Shown: piece after piece, positions 37,995-61,766 of the stretch | How the letters are laid out: every line of letters begins with the position of its first letter | How positions within the stretch are numbered: position 1 is the first letter of the stretch | Source of the DNA: Candidatus Eiseniibacteriota bacterium | Lineage (GTDB): Bacteria > Eisenbacteria > RBG-16-71-46 > JABDJR01 | Direction of reading: 5' to 3' | Assembly: GCA_963762255.1 (NCBI GenBank) | Contig: CAVXKA010000001.1 | Coordinates: 160,001 to 224,000, forward strand | Length of the DNA stretch: 64,000 nt | The notes under the pieces: model-generated | Told to the model about the DNA's origin: nothing | What the model saw: only the letters and a program-made list of their open reading frames with translations | Database searches by the model: none | Program-made: the position numbers and the translations under genes

Positions 37995-40683
37995 ATGTCC
38001 ATGAGCCACTTCTGCCGCCGATACGCGAGACGAGACGGATCCGGCCCCGCGCCGGTATCGCGACGCATCGCCGGCGTTCTCCCGCTCGCGTTCTTCGCGG
38101 TGACTCTCGCGACGACACGCCCCGCAGCCGCGGCGTTCCACACGTTCGAGCCGACCGGCGACGATGCGCAGTACCCGCCGACCGCGAACGGCCGCCTCAT
38201 CGGCACGCCGACGGTTCGCACCTACTCGCTTTCGCGCGGCGAGAGCATCACGGTCGACGGCAAGCTGGACGACCCTGTCTGGCTCAAGGCGGAAGGGGCG
38301 ACGGGATTCACGGTGTGGGAGCCTGATCGCGGCAAGACGCCCTCCGAGGAGACCGTCTTCAAGGTCGCTCACGACCAGGATGCGATCTACTTCGCGGTCG
38401 CCTGTCCGGAGAAGGACGCGGCGAAGATCAGCAAGAAGCTCTCCCGGCGCGACAAGTTCAGCAACTCGGATCTGGTGAGCGTCTACATCGACCCGTATCA
38501 CGACCGCAGCACCGGCTACAACTTCCGGGTGAACCCGCTGGGCGTGCAGACCGACGCCTATATGTATAACGACGGCGAGCGCGACGACGACTGGGATGCG
38601 GTGTGGGAGGGCGAGGTGACCGAGGACGCGGGCGGCTGGTACGCGGAGATCCGCATCCCGTTCTCGGCCATCCGGTACCGCCCCGGCCTCGATACCTGGG
38701 GGCTGCAGGTCTACCGCTATATGCATGGCCGCGGCGAGGACACGGCGTGGGTGACGTGGAACCGCGAGCAGAGCGGGTTCGTGAGCCGGTTCGGCACCCT
38801 CATGGGCCTGGAGGACGTCCCCCCTCCGCGCCAACTCGAGATCCTCCCCTACGCGGTGGGGCGCGCTTCCGACCCGGTCGCTCCGCGCAGCGAGGACGGC
38901 ATCGACGGACTCGGAAACTTCGGAGCGGACCTCAAGTACGGCGTCACCTCCGACCTCACCCTGAACGGTACCTTGCAGCCCGACTTCGGCCAAGTGGAGG
39001 CCGACCCGGCCGAGCTCAACCTCTCCCCCTTCGAGACCTTCTTCGAGGAGAAGCGCCCGTTCTTTATCGAAGGGAGCCGGTTCTTCCAGCAACCGGTCTT
39101 CACGATGTTCTATTCGCGGCGGATCGGGACCGGCGACGCCAACTCCCGCATCCGTTACGCGACCAAACTCACCGGCAAGACGAAGTCCGACGTTTCGGTG
39201 GCCGCGCTCGCCGCATCCACCGACGTGACCGGAGAGGGCCAGGCCCACAACTTCCTCAAGAGCGGAGATCAGACTGCGCGCTACTTCGTCACGCGCCTCG
39301 GCAAGGAGTTCGCCCAGGGGCGATATCGTTTCAACGTCATGCAAACCGCGGCGCTCAGGAGCGCCGACCGCACGACCTACGGCGACTTCGCCTCGCGCGA
39401 TGCCTATACCACCGGCCTCGATTTCGATCTCAAGTTCAAGGATCGCAAGTACCGCATGGTGGGAAACTTCGCCGGCTCGGTGGTGGATCCCCGGGCTCTC
39501 CCCGACGATCCGCGGAGCGGCTTGTCCAGATACGGCACGGGCGGCCATCTCGAGGCCCAGCGCACGGCAGGAAAGGTGCTCGTATCGGCCTGGGGGCACT
39601 GGGAGACCGACCGGCTCGATCTCAACGATCTCGGGTACCTGCAGGCCCCCGACGAGATCAACCTCGGCGGCTGGATGCAGTACCGGTACAACCCCGAAGG
39701 CAAGAACAAGCATGTCAATCAGGCCCAGCTGACCCTGAACCTGTGGAGGATCATGACTGTACGGTGCCCGCACCGGCTACGACCTCCATACCCGGGAGCC
39801 GATCTGGTCCTACGGGCGGGGGTTCTTCCAGAGTCACGGCGCCACCCTCGAGCCCTGGATCCAATTTCGAGACTACCGGGAGCTATGGGCGGGGCTCGAA
39901 TACGGCTCCGAGAACAATCAGCGTTACGAGACTCGGAGCACGGTGATGCTCCTGCCCGACGCCCACGGAAACGTCGTGGAAGCGCCCATTCCCGGAGGCG
40001 GGCCGCTCATGAAGGATCCCTTCTCGTATGGCGGCTGGGTGGGAGGCAGCAGCGATACCCGCCGGGACTTCGTGGCGCAGGCCACCGGGATCTACTTCGA
40101 GGATACGGCCAAGAACACGGTCAGCGAGCTGGAGACCTCGGTGCGCTGGAACCAGTCGAGCGCGGTGAACCACGAGCTGATCCTCAACTACGAGTACCGG
40201 CGCGACGACACGCAGCACCTGGGGAACTACGAGAACACCAACGGCGGGATCGGGGGCGTGAGCTACGTCTTCGGCGTGTTCCGCCAGCGCACCGTGGATC
40301 TGACCCTGCGCACGAGCCTCCTGTTCGACCGGGATCGGTCGCTCGAGATCTACGCTCAGCCGTTCATCACGGTGGGGAACTACACCCAGGCCAAGGAGCT
40401 GGCCGCGCCGTTCACCTACGACTTCATCCCTTACACCCGCGACGGGTTCAAGGCCTCCGACCACGACTTCAGCTACACGTCGGTCAACGTGAACGCGGTG
40501 TACCGGTGGGAGTACCGGCCGGGGAGCACGTTCTACCTGGTGTGGGCGCACAACCGATCCGACTACTCGGAGCGCGCGGCGGGGCCGCAGCACTTCAACA
40601 ACCGCCTGCGGACGGGGGCGTTCTTCGATACCGAACCGGGAAACACGATCTTGGTCAAGATCAGCTATTGGATTCCGGTCTAG
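37995..40683 (+). pseudogene. CBM9-like sugar-binding + DUF5916 outer-membrane protein, interrupted by one +1 frameshift near 39756
   Basis: ITVDGKLDD...W, FRVNPLG, W-AEIRIPFS, PDFGQVEAD...NLSPFE-FF-EKRPFF-EG, FYSRRIG. The coding frame switches +1 after NLWRIM and ends in RWEYRPGSTFYLVW...KISYWIPV. Confidence 0.8.
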
Positions 40684-40803
40684 GCGCGGGCTGCGGGGCG
40701 CCGTGGGCCGTGCAGTCTCGATGACACCGTGTGCTAGACTGCCGCGAGTCCGTTCTCGTGGAACCCCTCGATCCGACACCCTCATCCCGTGAGGAACTCC
40801 ACC

Positions 40804-42000
40804 ATGCCGAAGATCCGCGCGCTTCTCGCCGCCGGCCTTCTCGCGGCCATGGCGGCCTCGGCGGGGCCAGCGGCCGCGCAATCGCTGGCCGCCTACGACC
40901 AGGCCCTCGCCGACGCCAAGGCCCAGAACAAGACCGTCCTCCTCGATTTCTACACCGATTGGTGAAGCTCTTGCAAAGCATTCGCCCGTGCGGCGGACTC
41001 CGATAGCGACCTCCAGCAGAGCCTCGGCAAGTTCGTGTTCCTCACCGTCAACGCCGAGAAGGAAGACGGTCCCGAACTCTCCAAGCGGTTCTCGATCGTC
41101 GGCTACCCCACCTACGTCGTTCTCAACGGCGACGGCGCCACCCTCGACCGATGGATCGGCTACGAAAAGAAGACGTGGCTGGCCTCGGCGCAGGCGGTGC
41201 TGGCCGATCCCGTCACCTTGGACCATCGCAAGCAACGGTTCGCCAAGAGCCCCTCGGCGCCCGATGCCGCCCGCCTCGCCATGGTCTGCGATTCGCGCGG
41301 AGAGTACGGCGAATCGATCGTCCTGTACCGCGAAGCCCAGCGGTTGAACCAGGATCCGGAGAAGGACTACCTCATGAACGTCTTCGTGGCGAGCTTCTAT
41401 GCAGCTCGCAAGAAGAAGGCCGCTCAAGAGGACGTCGCCGCAGCCGCCGATGCGGTCCTCGCCTCGCCCAAGGCGAAGCCGGGGGAACTGGCGGACGTGG
41501 CCTATCTCATGGTCGTGACCGCGCGCGGCATGGAGCAGCCGGAGAAAGCGATCCCCTACCTCAAGGCCGCTGTCGAGCGCACGGAGGGAACGACCGACCC
41601 CGAAGTGCAGCGCTCGCGGGCGGACATCCTCGCCGACTACGCGCTCCTCGTGCTCAAGGACAACGACAAGGCGACCGCGTACAAGAAGGCGACCCTGCCC
41701 GAAGGGTGGATGACCGATCCCGGCAGTTTGAACGGCTACGCGTGGTGGTGCTTCGAGAACGGGATCCATCTCGACGAAGCTCAGGCGCTGGCGGAGAAGG
41801 GAGCCGAGCTGGCCAAGCCGGGGAAGGAACGCGCCATGATCCTCGACACCCTGGCCGAGATCTGCAACGCGCGCGGCAACCCCACCGAGGCGCTGAGCGC
41901 CGCCCAACGCGCGCTCGCCGAAGCCCCGGACGGCAAGCAGTATCAGGAGCAGGTTGAGCGGTTCGGCAAGCTCGCCGGCGAGAAGGGCAAAGGAAAGTAG
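40804..42000 (+). CDS. exported thioredoxin-fold + TPR protein, predicted selenoprotein (UxxC)
   Basis: ATG 40804 with GAGGA RBS and signal peptide; KTVLLDFYTDW-TGA-SSCKAF in frame with the track ORF 41035..42000 (GYPT cis-Pro loop, TPR-like LNGYAW...DTLAE). Confidence 0.85.
40981..40997 (+). promoter_or_regulatory. putative bacterial SECIS hairpin
   Basis: TTCGCC-CGTGC-GGCGGA stem-loop starting 15 nt after the UGA, with GU near the 5' side of the loop. Confidence 0.55.
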
Positions 42001-42026
42001 AACCGCCCGAAGCACGATGTCCCGCG

Positions 42027-42057
42027 GAGGCGGCTCTCAGATCCTGGGGGCCGCCTC
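42027..42057. terminator. hairpin between convergent genes, probable terminator
   Basis: GAGGCGGCTCTCAG-ATC-CTGGGGGCCGCCTC followed by TTCATTC. Confidence 0.55.
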
Positions 42058-42062
42058 TTCAT

Positions 42063-44249
42063 TCAATCGCTCTCGTTTCGGAAGCGCTGCCGCACTTCGG
42101 GCTCGACGCGTCGCAGCACGATCGGAGCGGCGGTGACCTGCCGCCCCGACTCCAGCACGATCTCGCGGATGGCGGAATCGCCCAACTGCACGCCCTGGGG
42201 CAGGCTCCACTCCGCGATCTCCAACGTGGCCGGGCCCGCGTCGAGGCCGGTCAGCGCGAACTTCCCATCGCCGTCGGTGAACACGTCGTGGTGGCTTCCG
42301 CGCAGGCGGATGAGGATGTCGGGCACGCCGACGAAAGACCCGCTCGCGTCCCTCGCGACGACACGTCCCTCCACCCCGGCCGCGCGACGGATCGCGAAGT
42401 CGGCGACCGCGTCCTCTCCCGGACGCAGACGGAGCGGAATCCGGTCGCGGGCCGGCGCGAGGTACCGAGTGGCCAGGCGCGCCGGATCGAAGAGTACGAA
42501 GTCGAGCCCGGGCTCGGCATGCTCCAGGCGGTATGAACCGTCTCGCGCGGTGATCATCTCCTCGCCGCTCCCAAGCCGAACCGTGAGGCCGGGTATGCCC
42601 GGTTCTCCGGCGTCGCGATTGCCGTTCGCGTTGAGGTCCTCGAAGACCACACCGCGCACCGAGCCGAACTCCGGCAGACCTTCAATCGTTTCCAGGCGAC
42701 CGCCCCCGAACGAGAAGCTGCGGCTCAACCGCAGGTTCACGCGGGCTGCATCGGGGTCGCGCGCGCCCGCGCGGACGTAGGCGAAGCCCTCGATTCCGAC
42801 GGTCAGATCTCCGAAGATGCCCTGCCGCCATCCCCCGCCGATTTGCCATTGATCGCGCGCAAACTCCTCGTCGTCCGCATCCTGCCGCTCGCGGGCGAGA
42901 CTCAACCAGAGACTTCTCTCGTCGCCGGGATCCCACGCGATGCGGGACTCCAGTCGACGCTCGCGACTCGTCCAGCGGCCGTTCGGGAGCCGGCGCTCCA
43001 CGCTCGCGCCCAGGAGTTCCAGGTTCAGCGTCTCACCCAACCGCTCCGACAGGCGGGCGGTCACGCGATCCTCGTGCCAGTCGCCGGCCTCCTGCGCGGG
43101 ATCGCGGAAGAGGCCGCGCGAGTAGCCGAGGCTGCCGCCGTGGACCCGCGTGCGCCATCCGATCTCCCCTCCGCCGTTGAGGACGCCTTGATCGACCAGA
43201 AGGCTGTCCGGATCCACGGTCGAGCGCGCGCGGTACGCGGCGGTGGTTTGAACGTAGAGCGGACGAACGAGGGGCACGGTGGAGAAAGCGCGCAACGACA
43301 CGCGCTCCTCGGGTGGAAGGCCGTCCGCGCGTCGCGTCAGATCGCGCGCCCAGTCGGCCGCCGCACCCAGGTACATGGCTGGCCGCGGACGGAGACCGGT
43401 CTCCAGACGCGCGCCCCACTCGTTCTCGTGCGGGCCGCGCAGGAGTCCGAGATCGCGATACGCAGGGGCGATGCGGCGCGCATGCCCCGAGATCACCGAG
43501 TGCTCGCCGGTGCGAGTGAATCCCGCGACGACGGTCGTGCCGAGGCGCGACGACCCGTCCTCCCTCGACACGCTCAGATCGCCGAGCCACGACCACCCGC
43601 GCGCCGCGTTCGCGGCGACGAGCAGCCGGGAAACCTGAAGGCCGGCGGGGCGCTCAGGCAGTGCTTGCTGGCGGTCCCACGAGAGATCCCAGCGACGGCG
43701 TGACCCCAGACTTCCGCCCAGCCCGAGCCCGAGTACGCCGGAATCGGTGGACGTGCGGCCCAATGCGGCGCCTCCCTGCCTCTCGGTGAGCGCACCTCCC
43801 CGCACTTCGACGCGCAGATCTCCGCGCCTCAATCCCCATCCCGCTCCGCGCAGCCATACCGGGGGGTGGAACTCCGAGGCCAGGTCGCTCCCACGCTCAT
43901 TTCCCACCGCAAAGTCGCCGAGGTGAACCGCCATTCGGCCGACCGTGGTGGGGATGTCCGCGCCGGTCAGGCGGAATTCCCGGCCGCGTTCCGACACGTC
44001 CATCCACAAGGACCACGCTCCGGAGTTGGCCGGAAAGGCGACCCCGTCGAGGTGGTACACCCACTCTTCACGATGCCGTGCAGTACCGTAGGGGCCCCAT
44101 TCCGCGTGCTGCCGCTCGACCCACGCACGAAACTCGCTGCGCGGCCAGGCGGCCGCGCATGCCGAGGGAAGCGCGGCGACGAGCGCAAGTGCGGCGATGA
44201 GGAGGGAGCCCGACGCAAGGATGCGTCCGGTCCGCGGCGCGTCGGACAT
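42063..44249 (-). CDS. usher-like outer-membrane beta-barrel protein with two C-terminal SdrD-B/prealbumin-like domains
   Basis: Signal peptide; LGDF...LRGA usher-like motif; amphipathic Trp/Arg-rich strands; GxVFEDLNANGNRDAGEPG and VEGRV...TDGDGKF domains. Confidence 0.65.
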   Translation of the reverse strand: MSDAPRTGRILASGSLLIAALALVAALPSACAAAWPRSEFRAWVERQHAEWGPYGTARHREEWVYHLDGVAFPANSGAWSLWMDVSERGREFRLTGADIPTTVGRMAVHLGDFAVGNERGSDLASEFHPPVWLRGAGWGLRRGDLRVEVRGGALTERQGGAALGRTSTDSGVLGLGLGGSLGSRRRWDLSWDRQQALPERPAGLQVSRLLVAANAARGWSWLGDLSVSREDGSSRLGTTVVAGFTRTGEHSVISGHARRIAPAYRDLGLLRGPHENEWGARLETGLRPRPAMYLGAAADWARDLTRRADGLPPEERVSLRAFSTVPLVRPLYVQTTAAYRARSTVDPDSLLVDQGVLNGGGEIGWRTRVHGGSLGYSRGLFRDPAQEAGDWHEDRVTARLSERLGETLNLELLGASVERRLPNGRWTSRERRLESRIAWDPGDERSLWLSLARERQDADDEEFARDQWQIGGGWRQGIFGDLTVGIEGFAYVRAGARDPDAARVNLRLSRSFSFGGGRLETIEGLPEFGSVRGVVFEDLNANGNRDAGEPGIPGLTVRLGSGEEMITARDGSYRLEHAEPGLDFVLFDPARLATRYLAPARDRIPLRLRPGEDAVADFAIRRAAGVEGRVVARDASGSFVGVPDILIRLRGSHHDVFTDGDGKFALTGLDAGPATLEIAEWSLPQGVQLGDSAIREIVLESGRQVTAAPIVLRRVEPEVRQRFRNESD

Positions 44250-45055
44250 CAATCCCCCAAGGAGGCCCGCGTCGGCTCCAGGGTGCACTCGCCGATCAAC
44301 CGGCCGAAGTCGGCGAGATCGACGGTCACGCGCGCCAGAGCTTCCGGCACGAGACCGCCTTCCGGAATTTCGATGTCCACCCACCGCGACGACCCGGGCA
44401 GCACCGGAACATCGGGAAGCTTGCCGGGAGCACAAAGAGCGCATTCGCCGACCAGATACGCCACGTCGCCGGCCAAACGGAAGTGCGCGTCGCCGGTATT
44501 GTGAACTCGCATGCGCAGGCAGGGCCGGTCGCCTTTCGTCACCACGGAGAGCGAGGTGATCTCGGCGGAAAGCGCGGGGCGTCCGACCGTGATGTAGAGC
44601 ATGCAGGCCACGCGACCGCGCACGTGCATGAGACGACCCGTCGACTTCGCGCGGTTCAGCGGCACGGATTCCAGCAGGAGCGCGGCCCGGAAGCCGTGAG
44701 CGACCGCCCGCTCGGGCACCAGGACGGTGAACCGGACGACCTGAGTCTGGCCCGGCTCGACCAGAAAATCGCGCGGCGCGAAAGAAATCCATGGCGCCGC
44801 CGAGGCGAGGGTGGTTCCCGCGGGCTCGAAGAGCGGCGTCCCCTCCTGATCGAGATGCCAGTCCTCGACGTAGGCGCGCAGACGCACCGCCTCCGTCCCG
44901 TTGTTCTGCACCTGGACCGCATTCGTGTACTCGGAGCCCGGCTCCGCCTGCAGCTCGAACCGGACGGGAGACACGTCGATCGAGAGATTGGCCCGAGCCA
45001 TCCCTGCGGGAGCCAGGGCGACGACGGCGAGCACGGCGATGATCTGTCTATGCAT
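44249..45055 (-). CDS. PapD-like periplasmic pilus chaperone
   Basis: Signal peptide; VSPVRFEL, VQNNG, WISFAPRDFLVEPGQTQVVRF, second Ig domain with VHNTGDAHFR. Confidence 0.72.
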   Translation of the reverse strand: MHRQIIAVLAVVALAPAGMARANLSIDVSPVRFELQAEPGSEYTNAVQVQNNGTEAVRLRAYVEDWHLDQEGTPLFEPAGTTLASAAPWISFAPRDFLVEPGQTQVVRFTVLVPERAVAHGFRAALLLESVPLNRAKSTGRLMHVRGRVACMLYITVGRPALSAEITSLSVVTKGDRPCLRMRVHNTGDAHFRLAGDVAYLVGECALCAPGKLPDVPVLPGSSRWVDIEIPEGGLVPEALARVTVDLADFGRLIGECTLEPTRASLGD

Positions 45056-45088
45056 GATGACCTCGTGGAGTGGCGCGCACGTTGCCAC

Positions 45089-45529
45089 TCATGGCGATGA
45101 AAGCGTCAGGGTCGCGGTGGCTGTGTAATCTCCCGGCGCAGAGTCCCAGGAGTTCTGGAGGTAGAAGCCGAGAGTCGCGGTCGCCGTGTAGTGACTGACT
45201 CCATTCCCGAGAACCGCCGGCACCACAGTGGACAGCACTCCGCCACGGAAGGGCGGGCTCGGTGACGCGGTCCACGAGACGTTTCCGATCGGGATCACGT
45301 CGGTGCCGGATGTCAGGTCGGAGTTGGCGATCATGGTAAGTATCCAGGGACTGCCGGGGGTCGCCCGAGCATCGACCTTGACACTGAGGTTTCGTGGGCC
45401 GATCACCGGCACGATGTCGGGACTTCGATCCGGGAAGCTCACCGATCCGGTGATCGTGAGCGTGAGCGGGCCGGCGTGAGCGGGTGGTGGCGCGCCGAGA
45501 CAGAGCGACACCACCACGCCGATTAGCAC
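45089..45529 (-). CDS. minor pilin-like subunit (paralog of 45646-46152)
   Basis: FPD..PD, ANSDLTSGTD-I-IGNVSWTAS and NSW...GDYTATATLTLSSP align with the major subunit. Start uncertain (GTG 45529). Confidence 0.68.
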   Translation of the reverse strand: MLIGVVVSLCLGAPPPAHAGPLTLTITGSVSFPDRSPDIVPVIGPRNLSVKVDARATPGSPWILTMIANSDLTSGTDVIPIGNVSWTASPSPPFRGGVLSTVVPAVLGNGVSHYTATATLGFYLQNSWDSAPGDYTATATLTLSSP

Positions 45530-45645
45530 CGCCGTGGACCGAATGCCGCGGCCGCAGCTCCCCGTGACGGAGAGCTGCGCGGCCGTAGCTCGGCATGTGA
45601 ACCGACCTTCGTATCCCAACAGACGATCCCCCCCGGGCGCTGCTG

Positions 45646-46152
45646 TTAGGGTGCAGTCAGGGTGTAGACCACATCCTGCGTGTAGTTGCCCACCGCGTAG
45701 GCCCAGGAGTTGTCCAGAAAGAAATCGAAGGTGCCGGAACGCGAGCCGGAACCCACCCAGCTTCCCGCGGACTGCGCGACGGCCGCGTGCATGGTGCCCG
45801 GGCCGTACCCGGCACCGCTCGCGGTCCAGGTGACATTGTCGATGTCGATCAAGTCCGTTCCGCTGACCAGGTCCCCGTTGGCGAGACAGGTGAGGGTGGC
45901 CACGCCGGCGCCCGTGGTGCGAATCTTCGCTTCCACGGATACCGAGTTCTCGGTGGCCGGGATGGGATCGACGACGTCGGGATCGGCGTCGGGGAAGTTG
46001 ATGGTGGTCGGGGAGATCGTCAACTTGGCCCGAGCGGACACCGTCGCGTTGATGGTGAGCGTCTTCGAGTCGCTTGCCGCGTCGGCCAACAGAGGGGTCA
46101 GGGCCAGGGCCAGCATTGCCAGCCCCAGCACGAGAGAACGGTTCTTGGTCAT
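45646..46152 (-). CDS. major pilin-like subunit
   Basis: AGGAG RBS, signal peptide, N-terminal alternating strand KTLTINATV, C-terminal GNYTQDVVYTL; rich in T/A/S/G. Confidence 0.72.
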   Translation of the reverse strand: MTKNRSLVLGLAMLALALTPLLADAASDSKTLTINATVSARAKLTISPTTINFPDADPDVVDPIPATENSVSVEAKIRTTGAGVATLTCLANGDLVSGTDLIDIDNVTWTASGAGYGPGTMHAAVAQSAGSWVGSGSRSGTFDFFLDNSWAYAVGNYTQDVVYTLTAP

Positions 46153-46392
46153 GGTGAGTAACTCCTACGAAATACGAGTCCTTCGCCTTCAGTCGCATTT
46201 CCTTAGCGACCCGAACCCTGTAGTCGGCAGGAGAGGTGGGCTTCTTCAACAGAATCTCTATTCTGCTTGGATATTTCTGGTGAAATTTCACCGTACCGCA
46301 GTCGCCGGACCGGATCCGGGCGAACGGCGCGGAGGCGGGGGCTCGCGGCAACGGATTGTCTTCCAAGGGATTATGGTGGAGAATTGGCAAGC

Positions 46393-58612: not shown

Positions 58613-61600
58613 ATGTGGATCACCCGGCTCGCCGTCCGCCGCCCGGTGTCGGTCATCGTGGTGCTGGTCTCGCTGCTCGTCCTCGGCGCGATCAGCGCAT
58701 TCAAGCTCCCCCTCAACTTCCTTCCCAACGAGGAAATGCCCTTCATCGGGGTGTTCGTCCCCTACCCGAACGGCGTCCCCGGGCAGGTGGAGCGCGAGAT
58801 CGCGCGCCCGATCGAAGAGGTCTTGAGCACGCTCGGCGGGGTCAAGCAGATCTTCAGCCAGAGCGATCCAGCTCAGTGCTTCGTAGGGGTCGAGTTCGAC
58901 TGGGGTCGCGACGTCAACGTGCTGCGGCTGGAGGTGAAGGAGAAGCTCGACCAGATCCGCCCGGAGCTTCCCGCCGACGTTCGCGACATCCTTCTCTTCA
59001 CGTTCAATACCAACGACATTCCGATCGTGGAAGGACGCATCAGCGCCCATGACCGCGATCTCTCCGGGAGCTACGATCTCATCGAGCACCGCGTCATCAA
59101 CCGTCTCCAGCGCGTGCCGGGCGTGGGGCGCGTTCAGGTGGAAGGGGTGGAGCCCGCCAACGTCTCGGTGTACTTGAAGCTCGACAAGATCAAGGAACAT
59201 CGGGTCGACGTGGGGCGCCTTTTCAGCGAGCTCTCCTCCAGCAACTTCAACCTCACCGTAGGCCAGGTCACGCGCGAGGGGCTGCGCTACAACCTGCGCT
59301 CGGTGGGGTCACTGGCGTCCGTGGCGGAGATCGAGAACCTGCCCCTGGACGATCGCGGTCTCCGGCTCAAGGACGTGGCCGACGTCGTGGTCGCGGAGCC
59401 CGAACTCACCTACGGGCGACTCCTCAACCGCGAGCCGGCGGTGGCGTTCTGGGTGCAGAAGGCCAGCGGCGCCAACACCGTCGAGGTCGTGAAATCGATC
59501 AAGACCGAGCTCGCGCGCATCAACAGCGATCCGGCGCTCAAGGGCATCGAAGTCTTGCTGTTCTTCGATCAGGGCGAGCAGATCACCAACAGCCTCAATG
59601 GGCTTCTCTCGTCGGGAGCGATCGGCGCGGGGCTGGCGGTGGCGGTCTTGTACTTCTTCCTCCTGCGCATAGGCACCACCCTCATCGTCTCGCTGGCCAT
59701 CCCGATCTCCATCGTCGGCACCGCCTGCTATCTCTACGTGACCCATCGCAGCCTCAACATCCTCTCCATGATGGGGCTGATGCTCGGGGTCGGGATGCTG
59801 ATCGACAACGCGGTGGTGGTGCTGGAGTCGATCTACCGGCGCTTGGGCTTGGGCGAGGACCCCGAGACGGCAACCCTGAAGGGCACCGAAGAGGTCGGCC
59901 GCGCCGTCGTGTCGGCCACGCTGACTTCCGTGATCGTCTTCGCGCCGATTCTCTTCGGCGGGAAGAGCGAGATCACGACCTGGCTCAAGGAGGTCGGGAT
60001 CACGATCACGGTGACGTTGCTGCTTTCGCTCCTGGTGAGCCTCACCCTGATCCCGCTGCTGACGTTCTCGCATCCTCAAGGGCGGTCGGAGGTCGGTCGC
60101 CCTCAACCCTCTGGTGGAACGCTGGGGGAATTCCTACGAACGGGTACTGCGCTGGACAGCCGTCCGCCACCCATGGATCACCGGCGTACCCATCGCGCTC
60201 GGCGTGGTGCTCCTCACCGTGGGCCTGGCGGCGGTGACCAAGTTCAAGCCGGACATCCTCGGCGACGAAGGGGTTCGCCAGGACTATCTGCAGGTCACCT
60301 ACGACTTCCAGGACAACGTCGACTATCGGCGCGCGCACGAGTACGTGAACGACCTCGAAGCCGCGATCTGGGCGAGGCGCGACTCGCTCGACATCAAGCA
60401 CCTGTATTCCTTCTACCAGGACAACTTCGCGATGACCCGCGTGTTCTACCAGGACGCCGCCTTCAAGGGGAGCGACCTGGCGGAGCTTCGCAAGAAGCTG
60501 CGAGACGGGCTTCCCACCCTGGCCGGTGTGGAGTTGCGCTTCGGCGACGACGAGGGGCAGCAGAGCGGAGCCAAGCAGTTCAGCGTGACCTTGTCGGGGG
60601 AGGATAGCGAGGAGCTGGCGGTGATGTCCGCCGAGGTCAAGCGCCGGCTGGTGCTCCTGCCGAGCGTGGCCGACGTGAGCACCGACCTCGAGCGCGGGGC
60701 CGAGGAAATTCAGGTGCGAGTGGATCCGGAGAAGGCGAGGCGGCTCGGTGTGTCGCCCGGCGAGGTGGCCGACATCATGGCGGTGACCTTCCGAGGCGTG
60801 CAGCTACCGAGAGTCCACGCCGACAACCGCGAGATCGATCTCTGGGTGTCGCTGCGACCGGAGGATCGCCAGACGCTCGAGAGCCTCAAGTCCCTCACCG
60901 TGGGGCTGCACAACGGCCGCGAGATCACGCTCGACCAGGTCGCCGAGACCGTGATGGGGAGGGGCGCCAACCGCATCACCCGCCAGGACCAGAAGACGGC
61001 GGTGACGGTGCGCGGGAGCCTCGAAGGAGAGGACTCCGACCAGGCGCTCAAGGACGTGCGCGGGGTGATGGAGTCCGTGCAATTCCCGCCTGGGTACGGG
61101 TGGAATTTCGGCACGGAGATCCAGCAGGCGCAGGAGCAGCAGACCGAGATGCTGGTGAACGTGCTCCTCGCGCTCTTGTGCGTGTACATGGTGATGGCGA
61201 GCCTCTTCGAGTCGCTCATTCACCCGGCGGTGGTGATGTTCTGCATCCCGTTCGCCGGGCTCGGCGTGATCTGGCTCATGGTCGCCACCGGCGCGCCGTT
61301 CAACCTCATGGCCATGATCGGCATGGTCATCCTGGTCGGGGTGGTGGTGAACAACGGCATTGTGCTGGTCGCGCACATCAACCAGCGCCGCAAGGAAGGG
61401 TTGTCGCTGGACGAGGCGATCGTGGCCGGTGGCCGCGAGCGGTTCCGCCCGATCATGATGACGGCGACCACCACGATCCTGGGACTGATCCCGCTCGCGC
61501 TGGGCAACGGCCACGTGGGCGATCTCAAGCTCTATCCGATGGCGCTGGCGCTGATCGGCGGCATGACGAGCTCGACCGCGCTGACGTTGATCTTGCTGCC

Positions 61601-61766
61601 GGTCTACTACCAACTCACCGAGCGCCTGCGAGTGCGGTGGGCATGGGTCTTCGCGTGGTTGGGACGGTCGCTGCGGCGGTTCGGCCGGTGGATGGCGTCG
61701 CGCCTGCCGTTCGGGCGGCGGCGTAGGAGCTCCACCGGACCGACGGTCGCGGAGCCCGCCGCATGA
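58613..61766 (+). pseudogene. RND efflux permease 2, split by one +1 frameshift at about 60065
   Basis: The N half (GMLIDNAVVVLE) continues as ...PLLT|SRILKGG...VERWG into ORF 60114..61766 (GVVVNNGI, RFRPIMMT) if one T of ACGTTCTCG is removed. Confidence 0.85.

Follow-up and report, generated by a model that had tools for sequence, protein, structure and literature searches.

Selenoproteins in which selenocysteine (Sec, U) takes the attacking position of a thioredoxin-fold U-x-x-C motif form a broad class. A 2026 list of 119 prokaryotic selenoprotein families (PMC13188914) names in its Table 1, among the parts of the source available to us, the UxxC types thioredoxin (PF00085), thiol:disulfide interchange protein (PF13098), thiol-disulfide isomerase-like (cd02966), redoxin, DsbA-like and DsbG-like. 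In the same accessible portion, the PF13098 entry is defined by domain and motif only, no TPR form appears in the list, and the words "TPR" and "tetratricopeptide" do not occur. TPR is likewise unmentioned in the available portions of the deep-Sep (PMC12013277), SelCysML (PMC13745706) and BSepDB (PMC13326102) papers and of the SAO preprint (10.1101/2022.07.06.499078), and a search for bacterial thioredoxin-TPR or exported selenoproteins, and for Sec use in the phyla considered below, returned nothing relevant (including PMC8318568) from a literature that left most subscription papers outside its reach. The closest described design is that of CnoX/YbbN (PDB 3qou, 3qdn), in which an N-terminal thioredoxin is joined to a C-terminal TPR part and which exists in redox-active and SxxC variants; CnoX is cytoplasmic, works with GroEL/ES and DnaK, and carries SxxC in E. 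coli (PMC8129009). Two further comparisons are the Trx7/PDZ (seleno)protein NF041199, a model of ~390 positions with an N-terminal Trx7-type domain and Sec, and, for the catalytic domain, DsbD gamma, TsoB (NF045694) and the Bacteroides 2kuc-type isomerases, which are its closest sequence relatives.

The gene described here lies in a stretch of 64,000 nt (the window) from Candidatus Eiseniibacteriota bacterium (GCA_963762255.1, contig CAVXKA010000001.1, positions 160,001-224,000, forward strand). The frame that opens with ATG at 40804 has one internal stop, the TGA at 40963-40965 (codon 54); 53 codons ending in VLLDFYTDW precede it, SSCK follows directly, and 344 codons then remain open up to TAG at 41998-42000. 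The original prediction of a 398-codon frame with a TGA at the first Cys of a CxxC motif was confirmed by reading the window. The features of the locus, in order, are:

40791..40795, + strand: Shine-Dalgarno-like GAGGA, seen in the sequence, with the ATG 8 nt further on
40804..42000, + strand: whole gene, 398 aa with TGA 54 read as Sec; homologs span residues 1-398
40804..40878, + strand: Sec-pathway type signal peptide, residues ~1-25, with a basic start, a hydrophobic core and an AAA cleavage-like end
40882..41208, + strand: thioredoxin-fold domain, residues 27-135; Pfam PF13899, PF00085 and PF13098 above cut-off
40963..40965, + strand: predicted selenocysteine of a U-S-S-C active site, codon 54; TGA in 55/83 copies
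40972..40974, + strand: resolving Cys57; Cys in 99% of 95 aligned database proteins and in 56/56 TGA genes
40981..40997, + strand: predicted bacterial SECIS hairpin, 6-bp stem 40981-40986 / 40992-40997, loop CGUGC at 40987-40991
41107..41109, + strand: Pro102 of the G-Y-P-T loop, at the cis-Pro position; Pro in 187/189 aligned proteins
41218..41991, + strand: TPR-like alpha-solenoid of 14 helices, residues 139-396, from Pfam, AlphaFold, Foldseek and conservation
42026..42058, + strand: probable terminator between convergent genes, a 15-bp hairpin 3′ of the stop; -28.7 kcal/mol, z -4.4, 0/200 shuffles

The last hairpin, which has no long T run, was missed by a promoter/terminator scan that found nothing.

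A scan of genome contigs gave 136 loci with relatives, the best 80 of which were taken and yielded 79 loci with 83 homologous copies scoring >100 bits; because only the best 80 of 136 were kept, the counts below lean towards close relatives of the query. The codon-54 column reads TGA in 55 of these copies, TGC in 17, TGT in 5, AGC in 3 and TCG in 1, with 2 unaligned, so that 22 copies encode Cys and 4 encode Ser at the site. The comparison of homologs for Cys or TGA at this position, proposed earlier as a check, therefore returned both in number (55/83 and 22/83). TAA and TAG are absent from the column in all 83 copies, and no copy with TGA has a further internal stop. One unaligned copy is cut by a contig end; the other (L030:10139) has the TGA and the hairpin intact and a frameshift ~48 codons 3′ of the TGA. 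The TGA copies span eight NCBI phylum labels, which were assigned by the depositors and are possibly not always correct: Krumholzibacteriota 10, Eiseniibacteriota 9, Zixiibacteriota 5, Acidobacteriota 5, Ignavibacteriota 4, Fibrobacterota 3, Calditrichota 2, Gemmatimonadota 1 and unlabelled 16.

These comparisons bear on the simplest alternative, namely that the TGA is a nonsense mutation or a sequencing error, or that the whole genome reads TGA as Trp or Gly. Two genes of the window are indeed frameshifted (near 39750 and between ~59960 and 60590), which makes an error in a single genome a fair worry; this worry is removed by the further 55 copies that share the TGA at the same codon across eight phylum labels, and which refute a nonsense mutation as well. 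Reassignment is refuted by codon usage. Of the 56 TGA genes, counting that of the window, 24 end in TGA, 20 in TAG and 11 in TAA, and one runs into a contig end, so that TGA is a true terminator in the same genes, and their 270 Trp codons downstream of the site are all TGG. We regard the probability of this alternative as negligible.

The protein databases contain the same family partly in divided form. Two protein searches gave 201 family proteins, not one of them with U in its sequence: the site is covered by 95 (the query among them), lies ahead of the start in 105 and could not be aligned in 1. The truncation at 41035 that had been foreseen for standard gene callers exists exactly, as a 321-aa database entry (P0002), and front pieces are present from four close relatives, each 53 aa long and ending in ...DW. 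The starts of the 105 shortened proteins are scattered over query positions 59-172, and some of these proteins may be plain fragments; all ten that start at positions 59-60 show the peptide encoded by the hairpin. Cys occupies the site in 91 of the 94 database proteins that span it.

The hairpin begins 15 nt after the TGA, corresponding to a bSECIS spacing of 21 nt after the UGA. The bSECIS model in the available part of PMC13188914 allows a loop of 3-9 nt, a stem of 4-16 bp, a G at loop position 1-2, a spacing of 16-37 nt and an MFE <= -7.5 kcal/mol, and the window element falls within it (loop 5, stem 6, G at position 2, spacing 21, -10.8 kcal/mol for 40963-41010). The energy of the 26-nt hairpin core is -7.4 kcal/mol. 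Stability was not above that of shuffled sequences (z +0.55 for 40963-41010 and -0.75 for the 26-nt core), and the minimum-energy folds of three longer windows do not contain the hairpin; the argument for its reality comes from the comparison of homologs, not from energy. The stem is complete, with six pairs, in 55 of the 56 TGA genes and has five pairs in the other, while the inner four pairs and a G at loop position 2 are present in 56/56, the loop following the pattern nG(U/G)Gn. The inner stem is found in only 1/22 Cys and 0/4 Ser copies, giving a co-occurrence with TGA of 56/56 vs 1/26 non-TGA copies.

Further support comes from the way in which the stem varies. Over 54 distinct rows, 99.7% of cells pair, vs 35-58% in slid controls, and RNAalifold recovered the same helix with one extra pair. 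Two-sided changes occur in 20 cells vs 5.2 in shuffles (0/500), the structure having been read from the same sequences, and the number of pairs with a two-sided change, 3/6, is no better than in shuffles (68/500). The hairpin also dictates five amino acids of the active-site helix, F-A-R-A/E-A/V; if these peptides were recoded synonymously, the observed pairing would be expected in ~7/56 genes. Of 55 TGA genes, 47 use CGT and 8 use CGG for the Arg of the loop, and none uses CGC; elsewhere in the TGA genes CGT accounts for 75 of 928 Arg codons and CGC dominates. The hairpin with a GU-containing loop that had been described 15 nt downstream is thus a 6-bp stem with loop CGUGC which co-occurs with the TGA and covaries. 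Once relatedness is taken into account the support becomes weaker: on well-supported branches, the independent TGA/non-TGA pairs number four, of which three go in the same direction, none in the opposite one and one is equal (p 0.25), a test of low power. A relaxed-pattern scan of the 31,745 TGA triplets in all frames of the window and loci passed 90, consisting of 55 known sites, that of L030 and 34 chance-like cases. In one locus the gene has Cys (TGC) together with a fully paired remnant hairpin (L017:2717), and its sister L019:857, 92% identical over 231 nt, has TGA; three database proteins (P0007, P0139, P0180) similarly combine Cys with a FARAV or FAREV peptide.

Taken on this comparative sequence evidence, UGA54 is almost certainly recoded as Sec, and delivery of Sec-tRNA to it by SelB bound at the hairpin is strongly supported. 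A very improbable alternative is that the UGA is recoded in a SECIS-dependent manner to Cys or another residue, or that read-through is rare and translation yields mainly a peptide of 53 aa and a cytoplasmic TPR protein made by re-initiation. In some bacteria, SelB-type tRNAs have been reported to carry Cys, and the databases do hold both pieces of the gene. The scatter of the 105 starts, however, indicates that there is no conserved re-initiation site, and Cys57 and the thioredoxin core are conserved on both sides of the TGA.

The Sec machinery was sought around these genes. None of the 49 ORFs of the window is a sel gene, and the window contains no tRNA and no Rfam match. No selA, selB, selC or selD was found in the window or in the flanks of the 79 loci; tRNA-Sec is absent from the window and from the 10-kb flanks, the 79 loci holding three ordinary tRNAs only. 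A SelA-like motif match in L059 looks like chance. When 9,428 TGAs were scanned for flanks that look coding, two peroxiredoxins were the only convincing additions. They lie on the + strand (L004:3951 and L005:6664), a few kb upstream of the family gene, in two loci that belong to the window gene's own clade. In each, the codon of the peroxidatic Cys is an in-frame TGA (TxxU), accompanied by a hairpin of 8 bp carrying the loop GGC. Their best NCBIfam matches are PrxU and AhpC, both below cut-off, and the window itself has no TxxU peroxiredoxin gene. TxxU peroxiredoxins are experimentally verified selenoproteins according to the part of PMC13188914 available. The apparent occurrence of a second, known selenoprotein type in these two loci lends indirect support to Sec recoding.

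The translated protein has three parts. The signal peptide of the original prediction was assessed by eye and with a crude measure of hydrophobicity. All 80 copies with enough upstream sequence have a hydrophobic N-region (lipobox in 5, Tat motif in 0, by the same crude kind of test); the protein is, on this sequence evidence, very probably exported. The thioredoxin domain matches Thioredoxin_7 (PF13899) at residues 29-108 with E 1e-15 and PF13098 with 41.6 bits vs a cut-off of 27. Pfam TPR matches cover residues 157-184 and 323-376, and GYPT occupies residues 100-103, as expected from the earlier description of a GYPT motif and a TPR-like region. An AlphaFold model built on a 43-sequence alignment (pLDDT 93; <50 for residues 1-26, which are unstructured) shows a thioredoxin fold to ~135 and 14 helices from 139 to 396. 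Over 104 residues the thioredoxin domain superposes on thioredoxin h (3d21) with a VIA-align Z of 14.9 and an rmsd of 1.8 A. As in the thioredoxin fold, helix 2 begins with C/U-x-x-C and the loop opposite contains a Pro; from that fold, the geometry of Pro102 would be cis. The domain that follows aligns to TPR solenoids in structure comparison. In the solenoid, N310, W314, W315, C316, E318, D348, T349 and E352 are 87-98% conserved among 200 proteins; in the last repeats, the counts of 200 are 180 for N310, 195 for W315, 191 for C316 and 194 for T349. Cys316 (41749-41751) lies in a WWCFE motif of the TPR part and recurs in 191/200 proteins, and Cys354 tends to co-occur with a Cys at 360 (both in 78, 354 only in 36, 360 only in 2). 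A distant relative of 632 aa (P0203, 25% identity over 376 residues) has three thioredoxin domains N-terminal to the TPR part.

When these features are set against the described systems, the window gene is a member of the UxxC thioredoxin-fold class, sharing with the selenoproteins of PMC13188914, in the available text, the thioredoxin fold, Sec at the attacking position, a 3′-adjacent SECIS and Cys homologs; the 260-aa TPR solenoid is the addition of the window family. Since the thiol:disulfide interchange entry asks for a PF13098 domain and UxxC, both of which the protein has, some members may already be catalogued under the generic PF13098 or PF00085 names. The top two Foldseek matches are YbbN/CnoX (E 4-6e-6). 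In contrast to CnoX, the family has signal peptides and Sec and is ~110 aa longer, and the whole chain matches YbbN poorly (TM 0.19-0.21, rmsd 21 A, 17% identity), although domain angles can differ between model and crystal. Identity with CnoX was set aside on the export signal, the greater length and the apparently poor whole-chain match, and the analogy leads us to infer only a CnoX-like design, not CnoX itself.

Other candidates were rejected by score. NF041199, whose motif is CxxU and which carries a PDZ domain, whereas the window gene has UxxC, a TPR part and no PDZ match, gave 14.8 bits vs a cut-off of 300. The likeness to DsbD, TsoB and 2kuc (E 1e-21 for the last) is limited to the 110-aa catalytic domain, and the window protein lacks the transmembrane DsbD part and a rhodanese domain; DsbD NF001419 gave 63.9 bits vs 330, TsoB NF045694 42.3 vs 805, TrxA TIGR01068 42.7 vs 96.8 and DsbH NF043050 21.1 vs 190. 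No NCBIfam 20.0 model exceeded its cut-off for the window protein, nor for five single-Trx homologs and two tandem paralogs. The chemistry, a UxxC thioredoxin with a standard SECIS, is of a well-known kind; what is new is a broad and systematically mis-annotated family, whose domain layout is absent from NCBIfam 20.0 and from the 2026 family list in its accessible part.

For the function, the reading that we consider somewhat better than even is an envelope disulfide reductase or isomerase with a holdase TPR arm. The signal peptide would direct the protein through the Sec translocon into the envelope, where the U54 selenolate would attack a disulfide or an oxidised Cys of a client protein and Cys57 would resolve the mixed intermediate, leaving an intramolecular Se-S bond. 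By thioredoxin chemistry, a membrane electron carrier of the DsbD/CcdA type would re-reduce this bond, and the TPR solenoid, with its conserved Asn/Trp/Asp/Glu surface in the last repeats, would hold client proteins that are unfolded or only partly folded. Two observations favour a reducing or isomerising role: CGPC, the motif of reducing thioredoxins, is the one most often seen in the Cys homologs (46/94), and the model lacks the DsbA insert. In the Sec forms the x-x dipeptide is mostly GS, GA or PS and is G-P in 1/56 TGA genes, so that their redox potential cannot be read from the CGPC homologs. Some of the 83 copies have lost motif cysteines while the full architecture is kept (neither Cys in 3, SxxC in 1, CxxT in 2, CxxS in 1), as would be expected of a scaffold that itself binds or holds clients, in the manner of E. 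coli CnoX with its SxxC.

Activity as a thiol oxidase of the DsbA/PDI kind, inserting disulfides into exported proteins, seems unlikely for the same selenoprotein. It would suit the exported location, the weak NCBIfam and PDB sequence matches to PDI domains and the G-Y/F-P-T loop, which resembles that of PDI. The absence of the DsbA helical insert from the model and the prevalence of CGPC speak against it, as do the best NCBIfam domain match, DsbD-gamma (far below cut-off), and the generally more reducing nature of Se-S compared with S-S bonds.

Genomic context bears on a further alternative, that the same selenoprotein is a dedicated pathway enzyme whose TPR groove binds one partner or peptide, for example apocytochrome c or a specific envelope enzyme, its U-x-x-C reducing the cysteines of that partner. 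With apocytochrome c, by analogy with the Ccm system, it would fill a fused CcmG/CcmH-CcmI-like role. The strongly conserved patch of the last repeats suggests a defined ligand. L013 has a gene for a multihaem cytochrome immediately upstream, and L045 has a cytochrome c peroxidase downstream. These cytochrome neighbours are single cases, however, with no ccm gene among the 140 neighbours scanned, and factors of this kind usually adjoin the genes of their pathway, whereas this family has no shared neighbourhood. No neighbouring gene is shared by more than 9/79 loci and no operon is conserved; the 140 ORFs scanned, of 162 non-redundant nearest neighbours, include no DsbD, CcdA, Ccm or Sel protein, so that the neighbourhood points to neither clients nor electron donor. 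A search for fusions to a redox partner gave no match in proteins of 714-2035 aa, which is weak evidence. Standing alone and followed by a terminator-like hairpin of its own, the gene looks more like that of a general factor than like part of a pathway, and we consider the dedicated enzyme a minority possibility, rather improbable, beside the general reductase or isomerase.

A quick tree was built from 82 copies, with the codon-54 site and the hairpin-coded helix excluded, L030 and L052 left out and no secure root. TGA status changes nine times on it, five of these changes being forced by well-supported branches; a simpler tree model gave ten, and a single TGA clade was rejected (p-AU 1e-39), the Sec and Cys forms being interleaved. 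The window gene groups with those of Ca. Eisenbacteria in L002, L004 and L005 (support 97), with which gene order is shared. L017 sits in a TGA-rich clade and, judged by its sequence, is a putative Sec-to-Cys change with a remnant SECIS, as described for FdhA and HesB-like genes in the accessible part of PMC1794560.

Interleaving could also have arisen by convergence or gene transfer. The TGA genes share one hairpin at one position in all 56 cases and the peroxiredoxin uses another, which makes a single origin with repeated losses the simpler reading. We tentatively extend this to a possible, though doubtful, scenario in which the family is a so far uncatalogued "seleno-chaperedoxin" of the envelope, the periplasmic equivalent of CnoX, whose Sec and single SECIS arose once and early, spread, and were lost to Cys or Ser at least five times; a single early origin is suggested by the identical hairpin, the different SECIS of the peroxiredoxins and the L017/L019 pair. 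Its spread over Eisenbacteria, Krumholzibacteria, Zixibacteria and neighbouring phyla is proposed with the same reserve. Repeated Sec loss, if true, would run counter to the reported bacterial trend, in which Sec-to-Cys change is rare outside FdhA and SelD.

Four full-length copies have Ser at the site (L029:10079, L074:5585, L076:10166 and L072:10073), three of them without both motif cysteines. A TGA copy occurs together with a Cys or Ser copy in several genomes, some in tandem; second copies beside a TGA gene have CxxT (L016:11410, L018:11373), CxxS (L038:11481) or CxxC (L037:8914). The family thus offers a natural Sec/Cys/Ser series of one exported enzyme, sometimes with two forms per genome, which bears on what Sec gives to an oxidoreductase, here in an oxidising compartment. 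It is common in little-studied bacterial phyla, where gene callers routinely split the gene in two, and the 105 of 201 database entries whose start lies beyond the active site have either the name "TPR repeat protein" or none. The SECIS is exceptionally clean and can still be seen as a scar once the site has reverted, which makes it a good marker for Sec use and for the direction of Sec/Cys change in uncultured phyla.

The surroundings of the gene in the window are as follows. Just upstream lies a CBM9/DUF5916 gene (38100-40683, + strand) that is split by a frameshift near 39745-39757; in L002 and L004 the same gene is uninterrupted over ~915 codons, and the frameshift is likely an assembly indel. 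A second AcrB-family gene (58613-61766, + strand) has a frameshift between ~59960 and 60590. Downstream, at 42063-46164 on the - strand, is a convergent cluster of exported-looking ORFs, comprising one of 909 aa with SdrD_B/CarboxypepD_reg matches and others of 279, 182 and 168 aa without a Pfam match, which by eye we take to be reminiscent of a pilin/chaperone/usher set.
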